Below are positions 17,940 to 27,549 of a stretch of 64,000 bases of DNA, in pieces. Each line of letters begins with the position of its first letter. Within the stretch, counting starts at the first letter, position 1. This DNA is from Acholeplasma sp. CAG:878. Lineage in GTDB: Bacteria; Bacillota_I; Bacilli_A; RF39; UBA660. The stretch lies in assembly GCA_000432255.1 (NCBI GenBank), contig HF989914.1, positions 11,270 through 75,269 on the forward strand, in the 5' to 3' direction. A program made the translations under genes and the position numbers. Under the pieces are notes generated by a model. It was not told the DNA's origin. It saw only the letters and a program-made list of their open reading frames with translations, and searched no databases.

Positions 17940-20576
17940 TTACTTTCTATCCCCAGATTTGATTGCGGCTTGTGCGGCTGCTAATCTTGCAATCGGAACT
18001 CTATATGGTGAGCAAGAAACATAATTTAGTCCGATATTATGACAGAACTCTATGCTTGATGGCTCTCCACCATGTTCACCACAAATACCAAGCTTAATAT
18101 CTGGTCTAGTTTTTTTACCTTTTTCTACAGCCATTTTAACTAATTGTCCAACACCTACCTGATCTAATTTAGCAAATGGGTCAATTTCATAAATTCTATT
18201 TTGATAATATGAATCCAAGAACTTACCAGCATCATCTCTTGAGAAACCGAAGGTCATTTGTGTTAAGTCATTAGTTCCAAATGAGAAGAATTCTGCTTCT
18301 TTAGCAATTAAATCTGCTGTTAGAGCTGCTCTTGGTATTTCAATCATAGTACCAATATGATATTTAATATCTGAATTTTTTTCCTTTTTAACTTCTTCTG
18401 CAACTTTAACCACAATATCTTTAACAAACTTAAGTTCTTTTTCTTCTCCAACTAATGGAATCATAATTTCAGGAACAATATCATAACCTTCTTCTTCCTT
18501 AACTTCAATGGCAGCTTCCATTAAAGCTCTAGTTTGCATACAAGCTATTTCAGGATAAGTAACTGCTAATCTACAACCTCTATGTCCCATCATTGGATTA
18601 AATTCATGAAGTTCAGAGATTTTATTTTTTAAATGTTCTACTGTAACATTCATATCTTTAGCTAAAGCAATAATATCCTCTTCTAAAGTTGGTAAAAATT
18701 CATGTAGTGGTGGGTCTAGGTATCTAACTGTCATAGGAAGCTCTTTTAATTCTTTATACATAGCTTTAAAATCACCTTTTTGGAATGGTATTAATTCATT
18801 TAAAGCTGCCACTCTATCTTCTACTGTTTCAGATAAAATCATTTTTCTGATTTTAGGAATTCTATTTTCTTCAAAGAACATGTGTTCTGTTCTACATAAT
18901 CCAATTCCTTCTGCTCCTAGTTCAACTGCTTTTTTAGTATCACGAGGATTATCAGCATTAGTTCTTACTTTAAGTGTTCTATATTCATCAGCCCATGACA
19001 TAATTCTTCCAAAATCACCACTAACAGTTGCTTCTTTTGTTTCAATATCACCAGCATAAATTTTACCAGTATTACCATCTAGAGAAATATAATCACCTTC
19101 ATGGAAAGTAATTCCTCCTAAAGTAAATTCTTTAGCTTCTTCATTAATGTTAATAGCTCCACATCCAGCTACACAGCAAGTTCCCATACCACGAGCAACA
19201 ACAGCAGCATGTGATGTTCTTCCACCTCTTACAGTTAGAATACCTTGAGCTGCTACCATACCTTCGATATCTTCTGGTGTAGTTTCTAATCTAACTAAAA
19301 CTACTCTTTCACCCTTACCACCTTTACCTAACATTTTAGCTTCTTCGGCAGTAAACACTACTTTACCAGCAGCAGCACCTGGGCTTGCAGGAAGTCCCTC
19401 ACCAATACTTTTTGCTTCTTTTAAAGATTTTACATCAAATGTTGGATGAAGTAATTGATCTAAACTTTTAGCATCAATTCTTAAAACTGCTTCCTCTTTT
19501 GTAATCATTCCTTCATCTACTAAGTCACATGCTATTTTAATAGCGGCATGAGCAGTTCTTTTACCATTTCTAGTTTGTAAGAAATATAGTTTACCTTCTT
19601 CGATAGTAAATTCCATATCTTGCATATCTTTATAATGGTTTTCTAACTTATTAGCTAAAGTTATAAATTCATCATAGCATTCTGGTAAATCTTCTTTTAG
19701 TTTAGTAATAGGTTCTGGAGTTCTAACACCAGCAACTACATCCTCTCCTTGAGCATTAATTAAATATTCACCATAAATACCTTTTTCTCCTGTTGCAGGG
19801 TCTCTTGTAAATGCAACACCTGTTCCACTAGTTTCGCCCATATTACCAAATACCATTGATTGAACATTAACAGCCGTTCCCCAATCTCCTGGAATATCAT
19901 TCATTCTTCTATAAACGATTGCTCTTTGGTTGTTCCATGAACGGAAAACTGCTTTAACAGCACCCATCAATTGTTCTTTTGGATTTTGTGGGAATTCTTC
20001 CCCGTTCATATGGTCACTATAAACTTTTTTAAATCTTTTTACTAACTCTTTTAAATCATCAACAGTAAGTTCTGTATCATAACATACACCTTTTTCATTT
20101 TTTAATTCATCAATGATTTTTTCAAAGAAAGATTTATTTACTTCCATTACTACATCAGAATACATTTGAATAAATCTTCTATAAGAATCATAGGCAAATC
20201 TAGGATTGTTAGTTTTTTTTGCAAAGCCTTCAACTGCTACATCATTTAATCCTAAATTAAGAATTGTATCCATCATACCAGGCATACTCGCTCTAGCACC
20301 ACTTCTTACTGATACTAACAATGGATTTTCAGTATCCCCAAATTTTTTTCCTTGTAATTTTTCTAATTCTTCTAAAGCATCAAAAATTTGTGTTTCAATT
20401 TCTTTAGAAATTTCGCATCCATTGTCATAGTAATTGGTACAAGCTTCTGTTGTAATTGTAAATCCTTGAGGTATAGGTAATCCTAAATTAGTCATTTCGG
20501 CTAAGTTTGCTCCTTTACCACCAAGTAAATTACGCATATCTTTGTTACCTTCACTAAAGGCATAAACATATTTCAT
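17940..20576 (-). CDS. ppdK: Pyruvate, phosphate dikinase
   Basis: 878 aa with PEP-utilising enzyme motifs: ATP-grasp N-terminus, central phospho-His region (GGRTSHAAVVARGMG), TIM-barrel C-terminus. Confidence 0.9.
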   Translation of the reverse strand: MKYVYAFSEGNKDMRNLLGGKGANLAEMTNLGLPIPQGFTITTEACTNYYDNGCEISKEIETQIFDALEELEKLQGKKFGDTENPLLVSVRSGARASMPGMMDTILNLGLNDVAVEGFAKKTNNPRFAYDSYRRFIQMYSDVVMEVNKSFFEKIIDELKNEKGVCYDTELTVDDLKELVKRFKKVYSDHMNGEEFPQNPKEQLMGAVKAVFRSWNNQRAIVYRRMNDIPGDWGTAVNVQSMVFGNMGETSGTGVAFTRDPATGEKGIYGEYLINAQGEDVVAGVRTPEPITKLKEDLPECYDEFITLANKLENHYKDMQDMEFTIEEGKLYFLQTRNGKRTAHAAIKIACDLVDEGMITKEEAVLRIDAKSLDQLLHPTFDVKSLKEAKSIGEGLPASPGAAAGKVVFTAEEAKMLGKGGKGERVVLVRLETTPEDIEGMVAAQGILTVRGGRTSHAAVVARGMGTCCVAGCGAININEEAKEFTLGGITFHEGDYISLDGNTGKIYAGDIETKEATVSGDFGRIMSWADEYRTLKVRTNADNPRDTKKAVELGAEGIGLCRTEHMFFEENRIPKIRKMILSETVEDRVAALNELIPFQKGDFKAMYKELKELPMTVRYLDPPLHEFLPTLEEDIIALAKDMNVTVEHLKNKISELHEFNPMMGHRGCRLAVTYPEIACMQTRALMEAAIEVKEEEGYDIVPEIMIPLVGEEKELKFVKDIVVKVAEEVKKEKNSDIKYHIGTMIEIPRAALTADLIAKEAEFFSFGTNDLTQMTFGFSRDDAGKFLDSYYQNRIYEIDPFAKLDQVGVGQLVKMAVEKGKKTRPDIKLGICGEHGGEPSSIEFCHNIGLNYVSCSPYRVPIARLAAAQAAIKSGDRK

Positions 20577-20690: not shown

Positions 20691-22088
20691 TTAACAATCT
20701 TTCATTTTTACCAAAGATAGTTCCCAACTTTCCATCGCATCGTAAACATCTAGGTATAACTCAAATGTTTCATTTAAATTAAGAAAAACTTCATTAGAAA
20801 GTTTGTTTCTATATTTTTCATAATCTCCTATTATACCTTCTTGATGTGGAATTGTTAATTTAATTCCATCTTTTGTTACTTCATTAACAATTATAGTGAT
20901 TTTACCCATAATCATTGGTTCATTAGTTATTACTTTATAATAGGTAATAATTGGTTGAACTTTTTGTTTTTCCAATTCTTCTGCTGTTCCATAACAACCA
21001 TGAAATGGAATATGTGTAAGTTTTATGTAATAATCATTATCTACTATATAATTAACTACATCTTTATTTGGAAAACCTTTGCTTATTATATCTTTTGCTT
21101 CCTCTGGATTTTCTCGCAAATATTTTAAAAATGTATATACACCTGTTGCTTTAAAATGAGGATTTAATTCTGCTATTTGCTTCGCTGTATACCCTTCTAT
21201 ATTAATAGCATTAGGTAGGGCATAAGTCTTTTTCATTAAATATAAAATAAACTCATTAAATATATCATCATATTTAGATAAATCATTAAATAACACTTTA
21301 GAAACATTATCGCTTTTTCCTATTTCATTTTTAAAATAATTAATAAGCAATTTAGAAAAGAAAGAATCGTTCACTTTATTTTCTATTATTTTCTCTAGCG
21401 GTAATTCCATTTTTATTTTGTTTTCATAATTTGATACTTTTTTAAAAAGTATTTCGTATTCTGATAACAAATCAATAAAATCATTCCAATTCTCAGGCTC
21501 TGCACCATTGCCATTTATTTGTTTATTTAATCCATCTATGTTAATTTTTAGTTTCCACGCTATACTTTTATCTCCAGAATATTTTGTATTCCAATCAGCA
21601 ATAATTGTTTTTAATCTATTACAAAATTCATCAAACTTCGAAAGAGAAATCGAAACATTTAAATCATTAATATATGATGTTTTACTATTATCTAAATATA
21701 ATAAAACACATTTATTATTCGTTTTTGTTAAAGATAAGCAATAATTTTCGACAACTACATTAATACTTTCTTTTTTTACTTTATCTTGTGAAAAATCATA
21801 GTTAGGAACACCATAAACCTTTTGTGGTACATTATCCTCTGGTTCTATAACATACTTTTCCTTATTTTCATTTTTTCTTTTTTCTTGAAGCCAATTTGGT
21901 ACTCCGTATACTTCTCTTGGCAAATTATCTTCAGATTCTATAGTATATTTTTCTTTAATTTCATCTTGTTTTGCCCTTGCTTCTTCTTCCCATTGCTTTC
22001 TAATTACATCAGGAATACCATAAACTATTTGAGGCCTATTATCTTCTGCCTCAATATTATATTTATCTTTTTTATTAAATAATCCCAT
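20691..22088 (-). CDS. Hypothetical protein with three N-terminal tandem repeats (KYxIExEDNxPxxVYGVPN) and a C-terminal domain of about 360 aa with no recognised fold
   Basis: Repeats: KYNIEAEDNRPQIVYGIPDV / KYTIESEDNLPREVYGVPNW / KYVIEPEDNVPQKVYGVPNY. The likely start is ATG 22088 (MGLFNKK), preceded by a GGAGGAAAATAAA SD; the first ATG at 22103 is inside that SD. It is the last gene of the island operon. Confidence 0.6.
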   Translation of the reverse strand: MGLFNKKDKYNIEAEDNRPQIVYGIPDVIRKQWEEEARAKQDEIKEKYTIESEDNLPREVYGVPNWLQEKRKNENKEKYVIEPEDNVPQKVYGVPNYDFSQDKVKKESINVVVENYCLSLTKTNNKCVLLYLDNSKTSYINDLNVSISLSKFDEFCNRLKTIIADWNTKYSGDKSIAWKLKINIDGLNKQINGNGAEPENWNDFIDLLSEYEILFKKVSNYENKIKMELPLEKIIENKVNDSFFSKLLINYFKNEIGKSDNVSKVLFNDLSKYDDIFNEFILYLMKKTYALPNAINIEGYTAKQIAELNPHFKATGVYTFLKYLRENPEEAKDIISKGFPNKDVVNYIVDNDYYIKLTHIPFHGCYGTAEELEKQKVQPIITYYKVITNEPMIMGKITIIVNEVTKDGIKLTIPHQEGIIGDYEKYRNKLSNEVFLNLNETFELYLDVYDAMESWELSLVKMKDC

Positions 22089-22130
22089 TTTATTTTCCTC
22101 CATATTATCAATTATATATTTTTCAACATA

Positions 22131-23225
22131 TTAATCATCACCATATACATCTTTTATGCAAAAATTAGGTTTTCTCTCATCAAAATTAAATGTATGAAAT
22201 GAATCTCCTAAGCAATATTTCCAATTTGAACATTTTTCACATTTACTACACTTTGTTCTGTTTTCGGTTCTAAAAATTTTAAATCTATTTTCCCATACAT
22301 CAACAAAATTATCAGTTTTGATATTTCCTTGAATAAATTCTTTTCTTCTTTCTACATCTGGACATATAAATATATCACCGTTGCTTAAAATGCTTGCTAC
22401 ATATAACCCAGCAGTACATATAAAATAAGTATCTCGTATTTCTTTTTCTAAATTTATTCCTAAATAATGACTACAACCATATTCAACATTCATTAAATTT
22501 TCTTCTCTTTTTTCTTTTATAAAATTGAATAAATATTTATAATCTTCTTTATCTAATAAAATATCGTTGTTGTTTTTAGCTCTTCCTATTGGGTCTACAT
22601 TTATAACTCTCCATGAAATAACATTTAACTCTTTCATCAAATTATATACATCTTCTAATTCATGAATATTTTTTTTGTTAGCAACTGTTGTAACTTGAAC
22701 AATCTTAATACTTGGTACTTGTTGTAATTTTTTTATGTTATTAATAATTTTATCAAAACTATTCGGTACTTTTCTAAAACTTTCATGAGTTTCTTTTAAA
22801 CCATCTAAACTAATAGATATAGTTTCCATATTAGTATCAATCATCTTATTAATAATTTCATCATTTATTAACATTCCATTTGTTGTCATGCCCCATCTAA
22901 ATCCAAGTTCACAAGCATACTTCATAAGAGTAAATAAGTCTTTTCTAACTAATGGTTCTCCTCCAGTAACATTTAAAAGTATTTCATTAGCATTATATCT
23001 TTCAGAAATATCTCTTAATGTTCTTTTTAAATCTTCTATACTTATTTCATCTTTTAAAATTGTATCACCGCAACTACTACCACAGTGTTCGCATCTTGCA
23101 TTACATCTTAATGTCACTTCTAAAAATAAATCTTTTAAAATTGGTTTTTCATAGAGTTTTTTTCTGTAATCAGCTAATTTATCCATGTTATCAATTTTAA
23201 TTTTTTTTATATATTCTTCATTCAT
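22131..23225 (-). CDS. Radical SAM enzyme with C-terminal SPASM domain (peptide/protein-modifying maturase type)
   Basis: CNARCEHCG (CX3CX2C), GGEPL, and a C-terminal Cys cluster C...C...CSKCEKCSNWKYC (SPASM, 7 Cys). AGGTG SD. Confidence 0.85.
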   Translation of the reverse strand: MNEEYIKKIKIDNMDKLADYRKKLYEKPILKDLFLEVTLRCNARCEHCGSSCGDTILKDEISIEDLKRTLRDISERYNANEILLNVTGGEPLVRKDLFTLMKYACELGFRWGMTTNGMLINDEIINKMIDTNMETISISLDGLKETHESFRKVPNSFDKIINNIKKLQQVPSIKIVQVTTVANKKNIHELEDVYNLMKELNVISWRVINVDPIGRAKNNNDILLDKEDYKYLFNFIKEKREENLMNVEYGCSHYLGINLEKEIRDTYFICTAGLYVASILSNGDIFICPDVERRKEFIQGNIKTDNFVDVWENRFKIFRTENRTKCSKCEKCSNWKYCLGDSFHTFNFDERKPNFCIKDVYGDD

Positions 23226-23236
23226 ATTTACACCTA

Positions 23237-24685
23237 TTATTTTTCATTCAGTATTTGAATAGACTTTTTTCTTTCTCCAGCATACCAATAAATTAAATGC
23301 TTTATACTTTTTATATCATCTAAATCATTTGTATTATTATATTGTTCTATATTTCTATTCACTATAGCACTTAAAATAGTCCCATCTTCTTGTATATCAA
23401 CTATATATAAGCAAATTCCTGTCCAACTTCTATATATGTAAAACTTATTATTTTCATAAAATGCAAACCAATGGTCTTCCATTTCTTTTGGAATATGTCC
23501 TTTTTTTAATTTGGTTAAATTTTCTTTCGTAAGTTTTAAATCTAATTTAATTTTTTTTGTTTCATTTGGCATATCAAGAATTTTCCAACTTTTTCTAGTT
23601 GCTATTTCATCTTCTTCGTATAAATATTTATCATAATCGTTTAATTTGTTAATAAATTTATTTATTAATTCAGATACATAATCTTTTTTTTGAATTACTT
23701 TTAACCATTCTTGTGGTATTTCATCAAAACCATAGATTAAACCTGCTAAACCACCAGTTAAAGCTCCAATAGTATCTGTATCATCACCGAGATTAACTGC
23801 TTTTAGTAAAGCATCTTTATAATTGTTTGTCGTTAAAATGGTCCACATAACTGCTTCTAAGGTATCAACAATATAGCCACTTGACTTTATTTCTTTTTCA
23901 CCTAAATTACTAATGTCATCTACTAAAATCCTTTTATATATATTTAAAGTAATTTCTTTGTCTCCTTTTAAAACATCACAATTATTAAACCATTTTTTTA
24001 GTAAAATATAAGCATCTTTTGGATTTATACCGTCTAATAAGTATTCTATATATTTTGAATAAATAAAACATCCAATTTTACTATATATATGTGAATGAGT
24101 TAAAGAAGAACCAGTATAAATAAAATTTTTAAATAAATTATCGTCTAAAATTAACATATTACCATAAATTGCTAATGGTAAAATACGCATCAATGAACCA
24201 TTTCCATTTGAACTAATATCATCATATCCACAATTAATTAATTTTTCTAATTTTGAATCATTAATGATATTTTCATTGTATTTTTCTTTTTTGTTTTTGT
24301 AATTTGTTAAAGAATAATTAGTAGAATTTCCTATATCAAAAACATTATTAAATGGCGTGTATTTACTATTAATTTTCCAATTTAAAAATGCATCTAATAT
24401 ATTTTTAAACATTGTATAAGTATTCATATCATCAATCGGTGTATTTACAATTGCATCCATGGTTGCTAATACCATAGAAGTATCATCACTCCAAGTTCCT
24501 TTCGGTTGATTATGCGTTCCATATTCTTCCATATCTTTTACTTTTTTTCTTTTTAGTATATTTCTACTTTGAAACTCAATTGGAACACCTAGAGCATCGC
24601 CTACAACAAATCCCATAATACTTGCTTTTATTCGATTTGATTTATTTAAATTTTTAGTTAAATTAGATTTATTACTAAGTATCAT
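23237..24685 (-). CDS. ADP-ribosylglycohydrolase (ARH/DraG family) with an extra C-terminal domain of about 140 aa
   Basis: N-terminal IMGFVVGDALGVPIEF and C-terminal GDDTDTIGALTGGLAGLIYGFDEIPQEW ARH motifs. Residues from about 345 to the end form an additional domain with no recognised homology. Confidence 0.85.
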   Translation of the reverse strand: MILSNKSNLTKNLNKSNRIKASIMGFVVGDALGVPIEFQSRNILKRKKVKDMEEYGTHNQPKGTWSDDTSMVLATMDAIVNTPIDDMNTYTMFKNILDAFLNWKINSKYTPFNNVFDIGNSTNYSLTNYKNKKEKYNENIINDSKLEKLINCGYDDISSNGNGSLMRILPLAIYGNMLILDDNLFKNFIYTGSSLTHSHIYSKIGCFIYSKYIEYLLDGINPKDAYILLKKWFNNCDVLKGDKEITLNIYKRILVDDISNLGEKEIKSSGYIVDTLEAVMWTILTTNNYKDALLKAVNLGDDTDTIGALTGGLAGLIYGFDEIPQEWLKVIQKKDYVSELINKFINKLNDYDKYLYEEDEIATRKSWKILDMPNETKKIKLDLKLTKENLTKLKKGHIPKEMEDHWFAFYENNKFYIYRSWTGICLYIVDIQEDGTILSAIVNRNIEQYNNTNDLDDIKSIKHLIYWYAGERKKSIQILNEK

Positions 24686-24696
24686 TATAACACATC

Positions 24697-26013
24697 CTAT
24701 ATTCTAAATTGTTGAAAAGAAGATTTGCAAACATTTAATTTTTCTGCTTCATGTATTTTTTCTTCTATATCTAATTGTTCTAATTTCTTATCTATTTCTT
24801 TTATTAAATTATCAATTTTAGTTGGTTCATTTGATAATTCAGTTTCAAATTGATTTCCAAAGTTTTCTTTTTTTAAACGAACAAACTGTTCAAGATTAAA
24901 CATTTTAATTTGCTTTTTTTCTAATACTGGCTTATCTATGTTCAATTTTTCAACTGGTATATATAATGAATCTACTTTTTCTTCATATTCTTGATTATTA
25001 ATAAATAATTTTATTGTTTTAGAAATTATTACTAAGTCACTTAGTTTAGTTATATAGTTTCCATATTTTTCAATCAAATCTTCGTAAGAACGTGTACCTA
25101 TTTCAAATCTAATATTTCTTGAAATTCCAGAACTTAACATATCACTTAATTCATTAACCATTTCTAATACATCAATATTATCAAGTACAAAATTAAATTT
25201 ATTATATTTTTTTGAGTTTATTAATATTGTAAATAATTGTTCAATAAACATTGTTGCAACATTATTTATATATCTATTTTCATCTTTGGCAATTAAGAAA
25301 ATAGCAGTCGGTTTAGTCATAATATCATCATAACTAAATGTAGTTTTGTTAAGTAAAACACTTAACATTTCTCTACTTACGTAAGTTCTTAATTTTTCTC
25401 TTGCAACTGAAACTATACTTCCTTTTGTTTCTTTTGGAGCAAGAAAAGTAGACGCCGCAAAAATATAAGATTGTGAACATGGATTTTTCAATTTAAAATA
25501 TTGAGTTATATAATCGCTAGTAGCATAATTGTTATTTATTCCATTAAACATTAAATTAACACTGTTTAAATTAATTTCTTCTTCCTTGCCATCCTCAAAT
25601 AATCCAAGCACAATACCAGTATAAAAATCTGATGCCGTATTTGACCAAAATGGGTCTATTGTAGAATTTTCGTAAAACATTATTTTTGCTTGTTTTTCTA
25701 TATAATCTATAGCTTCATCAATCATACCTTTCTTATATAAATTATAAGGATATTCTAAAGGATTCCAACCATCACTTTTATTTAAATCTCTTAAATTTAA
25801 TATAATAATATTATAGTTTTTATTCTTTAAATCATTATAATATTTATTTATGTATTCCTCTTTTGAATCTAGTATTAATAAACTTTGTCCATCATTAATC
25901 GCTTCCCCAACTAATGGAAACAATACATTTGATGTTTTACCAGATGAAATATCACCTGATACAATTAAATTTTTTTTACTATTAAGCATTTCTTTTAATA
26001 TTTCTTTTTTCAT
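24697..26013 (-). CDS. VirD4/TraG/TrwB-family (type IV coupling protein-like) P-loop ATPase core, without the N-terminal transmembrane segment
   Basis: Walker A LIVSGDISSGKTSNVLFPLV, then LLILDSKEEY, GWNPL and DPFWSNTASDFYTGIVLGL, which match the T4SS-DNA_transf / TrwB hallmark series (GxGKT...DpKgE...NPL...dpfW.nsA). Only 438 aa and no predicted TM helices. Confidence 0.7.
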   Translation of the reverse strand: MKKEILKEMLNSKKNLIVSGDISSGKTSNVLFPLVGEAINDGQSLLILDSKEEYINKYYNDLKNKNYNIIILNLRDLNKSDGWNPLEYPYNLYKKGMIDEAIDYIEKQAKIMFYENSTIDPFWSNTASDFYTGIVLGLFEDGKEEEINLNSVNLMFNGINNNYATSDYITQYFKLKNPCSQSYIFAASTFLAPKETKGSIVSVAREKLRTYVSREMLSVLLNKTTFSYDDIMTKPTAIFLIAKDENRYINNVATMFIEQLFTILINSKKYNKFNFVLDNIDVLEMVNELSDMLSSGISRNIRFEIGTRSYEDLIEKYGNYITKLSDLVIISKTIKLFINNQEYEEKVDSLYIPVEKLNIDKPVLEKKQIKMFNLEQFVRLKKENFGNQFETELSNEPTKIDNLIKEIDKKLEQLDIEEKIHEAEKLNVCKSSFQQFRI

Positions 26014-26389
26014 ACTTCCTCCTCAACACCTTTTCTTCAGTTGTTTCTTGTAATTCATTTATTTTTTTAAGAGCGCTTTGTTGTTGTAATATTTCTAATC
26101 TTTTGTATTTTAAACTTAACAAATATATTCTTTCTTCAATTTCTTTTTTCTTTTTTTCTAATATCTCATTATTCAAATGATTTTTATAAGTAGCAATTTC
26201 TTCTAAAGTAAAATCTAGAGATTTAAGTAATTTAATTAATTCGCATTCAATAACATTTTCATCACTATAATACCTATAACCAGTAAAATTATCTATTTGA
26301 CTTGGTTCTAGAACTCCATATTGTGCATAAAACCTTAAGGTTCTAACAGGAATACCCACGATTTTTGAAAAATCGCCAATCTTATACAT
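25982..26389 (-). CDS. MerR-family transcriptional regulator
   Basis: MYKIGDFSKIVGIPVRTLRFYAQYGVLEPS (MerR HTH), followed by a coiled-coil. The start at ATG 26389 has an AAAGGAG SD. The 3' end overlaps the ATPase gene start by 32 nt. Confidence 0.8.
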   Translation of the reverse strand: MYKIGDFSKIVGIPVRTLRFYAQYGVLEPSQIDNFTGYRYYSDENVIECELIKLLKSLDFTLEEIATYKNHLNNEILEKKKKEIEERIYLLSLKYKRLEILQQQSALKKINELQETTEEKVLRRKYEKRNIKRNA

Positions 26390-26700
26390 ATTATCTACTC
26401 CTTTTAATACCAACTATTCCTCCTTTCAAATAAAGTTTAACATTTCAGTCATATGGAGAGTCAATACCTTTTTGCATTTCATAACAAAAGTTTGATTATT
26501 ATAGTTTTAACAAAGTATTTTATTTTTTATATTATATTTACTTATTAACATTATAACATGTTTTTTCATATTTTGTTTAAATATTAAAATAATCAATAAT
26601 TTATTTTAAATATATAACAAAAAAATTAACTCAATTATACTGAATTAATTTTTTATAAATTTTGTTTCACATCATTTACAAATATACACTTTTTACTATT

Positions 26701-27549
26701 TTATTTATTTTTCATAAAACATTCATAAACGTTATTTAATAACATTGCAACTGTCATAGGACCAACTCCTCCTGGAACTGGTGAATAATTTAAAATTCCA
26801 TCCTTTTTTACATCTCCATATAATTTTCCTTGAAATCTTGTTATTCCAACATCAACAATAATAGCATCTTCCTTAACCATATCTTTTGTAATTAAATCCT
26901 TAACACCAGTTGCTGATACTAATATATCAGCATCTTTAGTATATTCTCTTAAGTTTTTGGTATATGAATGACATATTGTAACTGTTGCATTTTCTTGTAA
27001 AAATAGTTGTCCTAATGGTTTACTGACTAAATTACTTCTTCCTATGATTACAACATTACAATCTAATTTAACATTATAATATTTCAATAATTTTATTACT
27101 CCTAGGGAAGTACATGGAACTAAATTATTATTACCCTTAAATAAATTACCCATATTAGTTGTAGTTAATCCATCAACGTCTTTATTAGGACTTATTAGAT
27201 CAAGTAGCCTATTTTCATTCAAATAACTTGGCAATGGGAGTTGAATTAGTATACCAGATACACTGTTATCATTATTTAATTCGATTATTTTGTTTGCTAA
27301 TTCTTCTTCTTTAACATTATCATACTTTAAATGTTTAAAAGATATTCCTACTTCTTCACAAGCCTTTCTTTTTGAGTTAACATAAACGTTACTTGCTTCA
27401 TCATTTCCAACTTGAATTACTACTAATTTGGGATTAATATTATTTTTGATAATATTATCTTTTATATTTTGCTTTATTTCAAGACTCACTTTTTTTCCAT
27501 CTAAAATCAAAATATCACTCCCCAAATTTATATTTTGAAGTAATTTCAT
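26701..27549 (-). CDS. folD: Bifunctional methylenetetrahydrofolate dehydrogenase/cyclohydrolase
   Basis: [12 protein letters not shown]..., [13 protein letters not shown]. The N-terminal start is uncertain (35-nt overlap with the glyA 3' end). Confidence 0.85.

Follow-up and report, generated by a model that had tools for sequence, protein, structure and literature searches.

A radical SAM/SPASM enzyme and a neighboring Tyr-Gly repeat protein as a probable enzyme–substrate pair in Acholeplasma sp. CAG:878

A 64,000-nucleotide stretch of the Acholeplasma sp. CAG:878 genome (GenBank assembly GCA_000432255.1, contig HF989914.1, positions 11,270 to 75,269; hereafter the window) encodes on its minus strand a radical S-adenosylmethionine (SAM) enzyme with a SPASM domain, referred to here as rSAM, and directly downstream of it a protein with three repeats ending in Val-Tyr-Gly (VYG). 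A first-pass annotation had described this gene order, which we confirmed, and had proposed an enzyme–substrate relation between the two proteins, the target being the aromatic-Gly core of the repeats. Both the Tyr-Gly (YG) proteins found next to rSAM homologs and a domain swap between enzyme and repeat protein support that proposal. The two proteins very probably form an enzyme–substrate pair, because the relatives of the enzyme almost always adjoin unrelated proteins with the same Tyr-Gly motif. As to the chemistry, we lean toward excision of a tyramine equivalent at the three VYG sites, of the type catalyzed by the SPASM enzymes called spliceases. The elements of the pair are as follows (window coordinates).

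22131 to 23225, minus strand: rSAM, 364 residues, with Pfam Radical_SAM and SPASM domains; proposed modifying enzyme
22104 to 22130, minus strand: spacer of 27 nt between the two genes, in frame with both, translating to YVEKYIIDN
20691 to 22103, minus strand: repeat protein, open reading frame (ORF) of 470 residues; proposed substrate
22005 to 22064, minus strand: repeat 1, residues 14 to 33, KYNIEAEDNRPQIVYGIPDV, with V27-Y28-G29 at 22017 to 22025
21891 to 21950, minus strand: repeat 2, residues 52 to 71, KYTIESEDNLPREVYGVPNW, with V65-Y66-G67 at 21903 to 21911
21798 to 21857, minus strand: repeat 3, residues 83 to 102, KYVIEPEDNVPQKVYGVPNY, with V96-Y97-G98 at 21810 to 21818

Recurrence of the Tyr-Gly motif beside related enzymes

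We compared rSAM genes at 23 genome loci and 80 metagenome loci (numbered with the prefix L below), whose products are 38 to 100% identical to the enzyme of the window. The first-pass annotation had held that orthologous rSAM genes lacking a neighboring repeat protein would speak against the pair. Over this whole range of identity the rSAMs keep a YG-repeat neighbor, though the neighborhood and the scaffold that carries the repeats change. Homologs of the repeat protein at 39 to 79% identity have the gene of a 364- to 368-residue rSAM/SPASM protein directly upstream in every context recovered, and rSAMs at least ~71% identical to that of the window have a window-type repeat protein next downstream. 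More distant rSAMs adjoin entirely different proteins bearing x-Y-G-(P/V/I) repeats. The three genes that precede the pair in the window, for a MerR-family regulator, a VirD4-like ATPase and an ADP-ribosylglycohydrolase (ARH), occur just with rSAMs at least ~78% identical to the window's, arguing that the rSAM and the YG protein constitute the minimal conserved unit.

Multi-YG ORFs, defined as having at least two YG[VIP] in 80 residues, were counted near the rSAM gene (within 700 bp) and farther away. At loci L001 to L032 they made up 23 of 154 near ORFs and 0 of 911 farther ones, a contrast for which the Fisher value of 1e-20 overstates the significance, as do such values in general here, because the loci are phylogenetically related. 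The corresponding numbers at the 80 metagenome loci were 41/494 and 7/1414, and the background over all loci amounted to ~0.5% (13 of 2612 non-adjacent ORFs). When the rSAMs were clustered at 75% identity, a multi-YG neighbor was present in at least 25 of the 36 assessable clusters. Roughly a quarter of the rSAM clusters are without a clear multi-YG neighbor, which counts against the proposed pair; in several of the clusters left over, the neighbor is a membrane protein with a single YG or an LXG-like protein with a KYAPP array. Since the loci are not independent trials, the recurrence of the motif on unrelated scaffolds is a stronger argument than the counts. The YG motif is the sole feature common to these scaffolds, and over about 110 related loci a YG-repeat protein is the only constant neighbor of the rSAM. 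Beside the window-type proteins, the scaffolds include the following.

WXG100-like proteins with N-terminal QPKYGV or VYGPPP repeats (L030, above the Pfam threshold at 33 bits; L021, L052, L066 and L073, just below it)
Small membrane-anchored proteins that have a signal peptide and one to three YG motifs (L023, L024, L028, L057, L092)
Lipoproteins with the motif (Y/F)DPxxN(I/V)xxDVYGPPxxF (L029, L095, L105, L110)
Dockerin_1 proteins (L091, L101, L106)
Helical proteins with long LYG or KYG arrays (L018, L020, L056, L074)

Judging from these sequences, proteins as diverse as WXG100, dockerin, lipoprotein and membrane proteins appear to be marked by this one rSAM clade in Firmicutes of the gut and rumen. 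The genes directly upstream of the rSAM in L091 (5140–5967), L101 (5246–5977) and L106 (68–901), and also in L093, L097 and L109, encode secreted proteins that combine three to eight xYGPP motifs with a Dockerin_1 domain scoring above the Pfam cutoff. As they adjoin the rSAM, cellulosome-type proteins may be among its substrates. Two or three YG proteins stand in tandem in L091 and L097. At L021 (9106–11981), L030 (4856–6842), L052, L053, L066 and L073, the rSAM lies among genes for small helical WXG100-like proteins, with YG repeats fused N-terminal to a WXG100 domain. These fusions hint at a link to type VII-like secretion.

The second line of evidence is a domain swap. Seven rSAM homologs of 514 to 520 residues have an extra N-terminal domain of ~150 residues, which AlphaFold models as a confident helical bundle running into the rSAM core. 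This domain is related to the N-terminal domain of 696-residue repeat proteins (27% identity over 142 residues, BLASTP E 2e-9). Where the enzyme carries it, the repeat protein encoded 2 to 4 nt downstream has no such domain and starts straight with the first repeat. When a domain is attached to the enzyme in some genomes but to the substrate in others, this counts as classical evidence that the two proteins interact physically. A simple read-through fusion cannot explain the swap, because the domain is found at the N terminus of the enzyme.

The repeat protein and the enzyme of the window

The true start of the repeat protein is likely the second ATG, at 22088 (MGLF...), since a GGAGG sequence is located 8 nt upstream of it and the 99%-identical cluster P0001 begins there; the protein would then have 465 residues. 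All three repeats fit KY.IE.EDN.P..VYG.P. They had been described as three tandem, near-identical 26-residue repeats; their number holds, but they are not near-identical abutting 26-mers, as the core is 20 residues long, the copies are 60 to 70% identical and they are spaced by 38 and 31 residues. Between any two repeats, 5 to 8 of the 12 to 14 identical residues have different codons, arguing that the repeats are old and held by selection on the protein. Among the ORFs of the window, the pattern N.P..[VILM]YG[VIP]P has three instances, all in the repeat protein, which is far beyond chance given a mean of 0.0005 in 2000 shuffles of the window-ORF residues.

In an AlphaFold2 model of the repeat protein (m8dc6ecb3e7ab, built on 45 homologs), the predicted local distance difference test (pLDDT) score is mostly below 50 for residues 1 to 103, so the repeats are predicted to be disordered and accessible. 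The rest of the protein had been taken for a unique domain of about 360 residues. The model instead divides it into three folded domains.

21414 to 21773, minus strand: folded domain 1, alpha/beta, residues 106 to 225, block pLDDT mostly 70 to 89
21078 to 21398, minus strand: folded domain 2, helical, residues 231 to 337, the most conserved module of the family (..SKYDDI.NEF..Y..GYTAK.I.ELNP..)
20706 to 21032, minus strand: folded domain 3, beta-rich, residues 353 to 461

A fold search of the model against the PDB returned just a weak Mago-like match for domain 1 (E 5e-3) and no convincing structural relative for the three domains. The repeat protein and its long homologs had no match in Pfam, NCBIfam, PADLOC or PHROGs.

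We found 113 homologs of the repeat protein, all of them unnamed and devoid of Pfam domains. Most are longer, with 536 to 815 residues (up to 966 in relatives), and are mosaics of small modules with zero to six copies of the motif between them. The logo of the family, from 156 distinct instances, reads K-Y-[DN]-[IV]-x-[PA]-E-D-N-x-P-Q-x-V-Y-G-[IV]-P-[DN]. The window protein has neither the helical N-terminal domain of ~150 residues nor the C-terminal module of ~66 residues of its 696-residue homologs. The genes of the rSAM and the repeat protein share a reading frame with a single TAA between them, and the spacer YVEKYIIDN is recognizable as the end of the helical N-domain (IKEYIVDD in homolog P0003): the window reads ...DD*YVEKYIIDNMEENKMGLF, and P0003 reads ...IKEYIVDDMEEKDMGLF. 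Because the 27-nt spacer keeps this remnant, we conclude that the window copy arose by deletion of ~150 codons. A tblastn search found no N-domain elsewhere in the window. When the repeat region by itself served as query, only six fragments were found, and the two that we inspected are frameshifted copies of the gene cluster, beside an rSAM.

The rSAM matched Pfam Radical_SAM (PF04055, 4.3e-22) and SPASM (PF13186, 1.3e-08), both above their cutoffs. It has both the CX3CX2C motif and the C-terminal seven-Cys motif that define the radical SAM/SPASM superfamily.

23082 to 23105, minus strand: CNARCEHC, the CX3CX2C motif (C41, C45, C48) for the radical-SAM [4Fe-4S] cluster, invariant in two homolog alignments
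22158 to 22475, minus strand: SPASM region with seven Cys residues (C251, C270, C288, C329, C332, C338, C356) invariant in the homolog alignment; Pfam SPASM at residues 270 to 332

To judge from the sequence, the seven SPASM cysteines would suffice for two auxiliary Fe-S clusters. The best NCBIfam match of the enzyme is TIGR04133 ("rSAM_w_lipo"), at 317.2 bits, below the membership cutoff of 425. TIGR04133 is also the best curated family for ten relatives from all scaffold types, again with scores below that cutoff (256 to 324 bits), so that the clade is an uncurated sister of TIGR04133 rather than part of it. Members of TIGR04133 are paired with the putative lipoprotein family TIGR04134. The two clades are thus alike in that the partner is a protein and not a short peptide, and some relatives here adjoin lipoproteins (L029, L095, L105 and L110). 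Neither TIGR04134 nor any other NCBIfam family matched the Firmicutes YG lipoproteins or small YG proteins.

The rSAM ends in ...CIKDVYGDD (22131–22160) and therefore has a VYG tripeptide of its own, which is probably a coincidence because homologs differ there in the alignment. Homologs P0212 and P0216 to P0232 (384 to 441 residues, 63 to 66% identity) have a lysine-rich, low-complexity C-terminal tail of 27 to 80 residues ending in (K)F[IVL][IFV][ESNV], and the rSAMs of L021, L022, L025 and L031 have a coiled N-terminal extension of ~90 residues. We looked for natural fusions of the rSAM with the YG motif among the homologs and found none.

Proposed chemistry and alternative explanations

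Spliceases are SPASM rSAMs that act on an X-Y-G motif: a tyramine equivalent is removed from the backbone, and X gives rise to the α-keto-β-amino acid that remains (PMC11414181, PMC9811515, PMC11002830). Examples are PlpX-PlpY, PcpX, RhaX, RcsX and RasX (Morinaka 2018, Scott 2022, Richter 2024; PMC11414181, PMC10533398, PMC11626197). Scott et al. 2022 searched for YG-rich ORFs adjoining SPASM rSAMs and, in the accounts of that work given in PMC10849128 and PMC10533398, predicted 939 systems and validated 27, across 189 genera. Spliceases can process several sites per substrate and can act on leader-free tags inside full-size proteins (PMC10533398, PMC11414181). The validated tags of PlpA include PIRPLYGLPI and AVAAGYGVVFP (PMC10533398).

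The pair of the window resembles these systems in several respects. A SPASM rSAM adjoins a protein with one or several X-Y-G motifs, in which X varies and Tyr and Gly are fixed. The flanks follow P..[VL]YG[VL]P, and PQKVYGVPN in the window and QPKYGVV in relatives are similar to the PlpA tags. A substrate can have more than one site, and some spliceases, too, form binary systems that lack a separate Y protein. By the summary of Scott et al. 2022 in PMC10849128, an X-Y-G motif in an ORF next to a SPASM rSAM marks a spliceotide; the repeat protein has three, all VYG.

In repeats of the window type, the Tyr position is Y in 125 of 126 instances and the Gly position G in 125 of 127. Tyr is equally fixed in other scaffolds (36/36 and 48/48), and Phe or Trp never occupies its position. 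The residue before Tyr varies across scaffolds (V, L, K, D, A, T, I, R, M or E). Gly is followed by I, V, P or T in window-type repeats and by P, V or I in most other scaffolds; overall, this third position is more variable (P, V, I, T, A, S, K).

We propose that the rSAM modifies the downstream protein at the Tyr-Gly of each of its three KY.IE.EDN.P..VYG.P repeats. Each site probably brings its own recognition sequence, in the form of the ~13 conserved residues before V-Y-G. 5′-Deoxyadenosyl-radical chemistry would then cut C8H9NO, the tyramine equivalent, from the Tyr residue, and the backbone would be rejoined. Each Val-Tyr-Gly would be converted to α-keto-β-valine followed by Gly, with a loss of 135.07 Da per site or ~405 Da for the three. 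Electrophilic ketoamide groups would be left in the linker region of the protein. The modification itself, the splicing chemistry and a downstream role, for example in protease inhibition or resistance, are all steps that we infer.

Several observations weigh against splicing. The enzyme of the window is outside the PlpX family (TIGR04103), with 97.5 bits against a cutoff of 725, and generic SPASM families, among them AhbD, NirJ2 and MftC, outscore TIGR04103 in NCBIfam, so homology alone gives no pointer to this chemistry. No splicease structure was available for comparison among the solved structures in the PDB. The published binary spliceases depend on a leader helix that activates them (PMC11414181), and in the window the helical N-domain has been deleted from both enzyme and substrate. 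The predominance of Pro, Val or Ile after Gly is also compatible with a three-residue cyclophane between Tyr and a Cβ. Finally, the motif has Tyr-Ala-Pro-Pro (KYAPP) in place of Tyr-Gly in a seven-repeat helical protein of L061. That 295-residue protein, with seven DDPIAVTKYAPPSF repeats, and a 91-residue WXG-like protein are encoded downstream of a 56 to 57%-identical rSAM (L061, 7163–8334; also L019, 2161–2807). L032 has LYGPPP plus LYAPP. From such sequences, the requirement for Gly may not be absolute.

The systems also differ in other ways from characterized spliceases. By its profile scores, the enzyme belongs to a clade distinct from the characterized PlpX family (IPR026482/TIGR04103, type I) and is TIGR04133-like instead. 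The window has no leader peptide, RiPP recognition element (RRE) or Y protein, and the natural substrate would be a 465-residue protein (up to 966 residues in relatives) with folded domains rather than a precursor of a peptide that is made by the ribosome and modified after translation (RiPP). The operon partners are MerR, a VirD4-like ATPase and ARH, not proteases or exporters. The helical N-domain, on the substrate or the enzyme in relatives, is a candidate counterpart of the Y protein or leader helix. The Firmicutes clade may already be among the predicted types of Scott et al. 2022. We found no relevant literature linking radical SAM enzymes to WXG100 proteins, on TIGR04133, or on VYGPP, LYGPP, VYGVP or VYGIP motifs.

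The first-pass annotation had called a large protein unusual as a substrate. It is indeed unusual but not unprecedented, as splice tags placed inside proteins are modified (PMC10533398, PMC11414181). The substrate proposed here has 465 residues, and the enzyme would act on a short motif inside this full-size folded protein. In this it would be like anSME, a SPASM enzyme that modifies a short motif in whole folded sulfatases before export. The anSME target is C/S-x-P-x-R and its chemistry yields formylglycine, unlike the reaction considered here, and there is no sulfatase at the window locus.

The first-pass annotation had likened the repeat core to the targets of cross-linking rSAM enzymes, for which a change of −2 Da would be expected. 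The tyramine excision appears likelier than such a cross-link, given the published splicease signature and the strict invariance of Tyr and Gly. A real though less probable alternative is that the same enzyme acts on the same motif by another chemistry, namely formation of a triceptide-like three-residue cyclophane between the Tyr ring and the Cβ of Val, Ile or Pro (−2 Da), or hydroxylation or epimerization within Y-G-[VIP]. The residues found after Gly (I, V, P, T) all carry a Cβ-H, which makes a cyclophane possible, and many SPASM enzymes form cross-links. The closest solved relative of the rSAM in the PDB is the thioether synthase CteB (5wgg, 1.8e-22), its high-scoring NCBIfam matches include MftC and WgkB, and its position outside the PlpX family also fits this explanation. 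Triceptide synthases (3-CyFE) likewise are SPASM rSAMs; their targets are short aromatic-X-X motifs, repeated to give several sites in a substrate, and the motif here can formally be read as Y-G-[VIP]. However, the invariant pair is Tyr-Gly and not Tyr plus the third residue, and no RRE-type leader recognition is apparent here. Cyclophane-forming enzymes commonly accept any aromatic residue, whereas the aromatic residue here is exclusively Tyr. An obligatory Gly right after Tyr is the published signature of spliceases (PMC11414181, PMC10849128).

Much less probable is that the repeats are mere flexible linkers, and that the rSAM acts on another protein or, like viperin in a defense or conflict island with ARH and the ATPase, on a small molecule or nucleotide, its adjacency reflecting operon membership. 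The motif does lie between folded modules in long homologs, as a linker would; PADLOC pVip models match the rSAM (3.6e-26), the cluster includes genes for ARH and for a VirD4-like ATPase, and relaxase or transposase genes adjoin some relatives. Yet the viperin NCBIfam model NF038283 scored the rSAM at 88.9 bits, against a cutoff of 180, and its SPASM region is intact, with all seven Cys; viperins are not known to have a SPASM domain. We therefore rejected a viperin-like or small-molecule role. The YG-repeat neighbor persists without ARH, ATPase and MerR and on wholly different scaffolds, although multi-YG ORFs are rare in the background, as noted above. For a linker, strong purifying selection on 18 residues, with copies that diverge at synonymous sites, would be without reason. 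As this 18-residue motif is kept by selection on unrelated proteins, always encoded next to the same enzyme, a pure linker role was also rejected.

We consider it highly improbable that the repeats are recognition or export signals for the VirD4-like ATPase, as in a coupling protein and its substrate, with the rSAM an unrelated passenger: although the ATPase is of the coupling-protein type of type IV secretion systems (T4SS) and some YG proteins of relatives are WXG100-type secretion substrates, the pairing of rSAM and YG protein reaches far beyond the one subclade (rSAMs at least ~78% identical) to which the ATPase is confined, the ATPase sequence as we read it has no obvious membrane segment, and the signal peptides of many YG proteins are of the ordinary Sec or lipoprotein kind.

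The gene cluster and its implications

The window has ~25% G+C, with nearly all genes on the minus strand. The pair is part of a tight five-gene cluster between folD (27549..26701) and the pyruvate phosphate dikinase gene ppdK (20576..17940), in which three genes precede the rSAM.

25982 to 26413, minus strand: MerR-family regulator, first gene of the cluster (Pfam MerR_1, 7.7e-17), sharing 32 nt with the ATPase gene
24697 to 26013, minus strand: soluble VirD4/TrwB-like P-loop ATPase, 438 residues (Pfam T4SS-DNA_transf, 8.8e-19)
23237 to 24685, minus strand: ARH, 482 residues (Pfam ADP_ribosyl_GH, 1.2e-59), with an 11-nt gap to the rSAM gene

The intergenic gaps in the order MerR, ATPase, ARH, rSAM and repeat protein are −32, 11, 11 and 27 nt, so the five genes very probably form one operon. 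A scan for promoters and terminators gave no informative signal in this AT-rich DNA. The same five-gene cluster is present at 99 to 100% identity, with a 100% identical rSAM, on metagenome contig OJMM01000009.1 (L033), and the nearest binned relatives are labeled uncultured Bacilli from the human gut. The order MerR, ATPase, rSAM and repeat protein recurs at L002, L004, L006, L008, L011 to L014, L034 to L036, L039, L113, L115 and L118.

Around this core, unnamed proteins of ~247–248, 311, 179–181, 305 and 418 residues recur at L002 to L008, L113 and L115, whose flanks also repeatedly hold ARH, DUF1963, DUF6508, integrase, relaxase, TnpV and transposase genes. The cluster resembles a segment of a mobile, mosaic island, of which the window has the five-gene core alone. 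The C-terminal module of ARH (~130 residues, 23237–23640) has no Pfam family and is 46% identical to an internal module (residues 540 to 643) of the repeat-protein homolog P0095 (E 8e-30); it is also found inside the 964- to 966-residue repeat proteins of L011, L012 and L035. Modules are thus shuffled between neighboring genes of the cluster, here ARH and homologs of the repeat protein.

If the two proteins do form such a pair, a 465-residue protein with folded domains is a natural substrate of a peptide-type radical SAM enzyme, and one clade would mark a short Tyr-Gly motif on Firmicutes proteins of widely differing kinds, among them dockerin proteins and candidate substrates of type VII secretion. 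The swapping of the helical domain would be a natural parallel to the engineered fusions of spliceases with leaders (PMC11414181). More broadly, and this we regard as speculative and unlikely in its full extent, Tyr-Gly radical modification such as tyramine splicing could serve gut and rumen Firmicutes as a general way of modifying proteins. One rSAM clade would act on full-size proteins of many kinds: secretion substrates of the WXG100 type, cellulosome components with dockerins, lipoproteins, small proteins of the membrane and the mosaic multi-domain proteins of the mobile MerR/VirD4-like ATPase/ARH cluster. The three linker sites of the window protein would then be ketoamide warheads that trap or resist serine or cysteine proteases, so that in conflicts between bacteria or with phages the protein would inhibit proteases or act as a decoy for them. 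Should the pair be real, the VYGPP/VYGVP-type repeats of many unnamed gut and rumen proteins would gain a testable function. Ketoamide and β-amino-acid backbone chemistry would be extended from natural products to ordinary proteins, and protein engineering would gain recognition tags of ~18 residues that need no leader.

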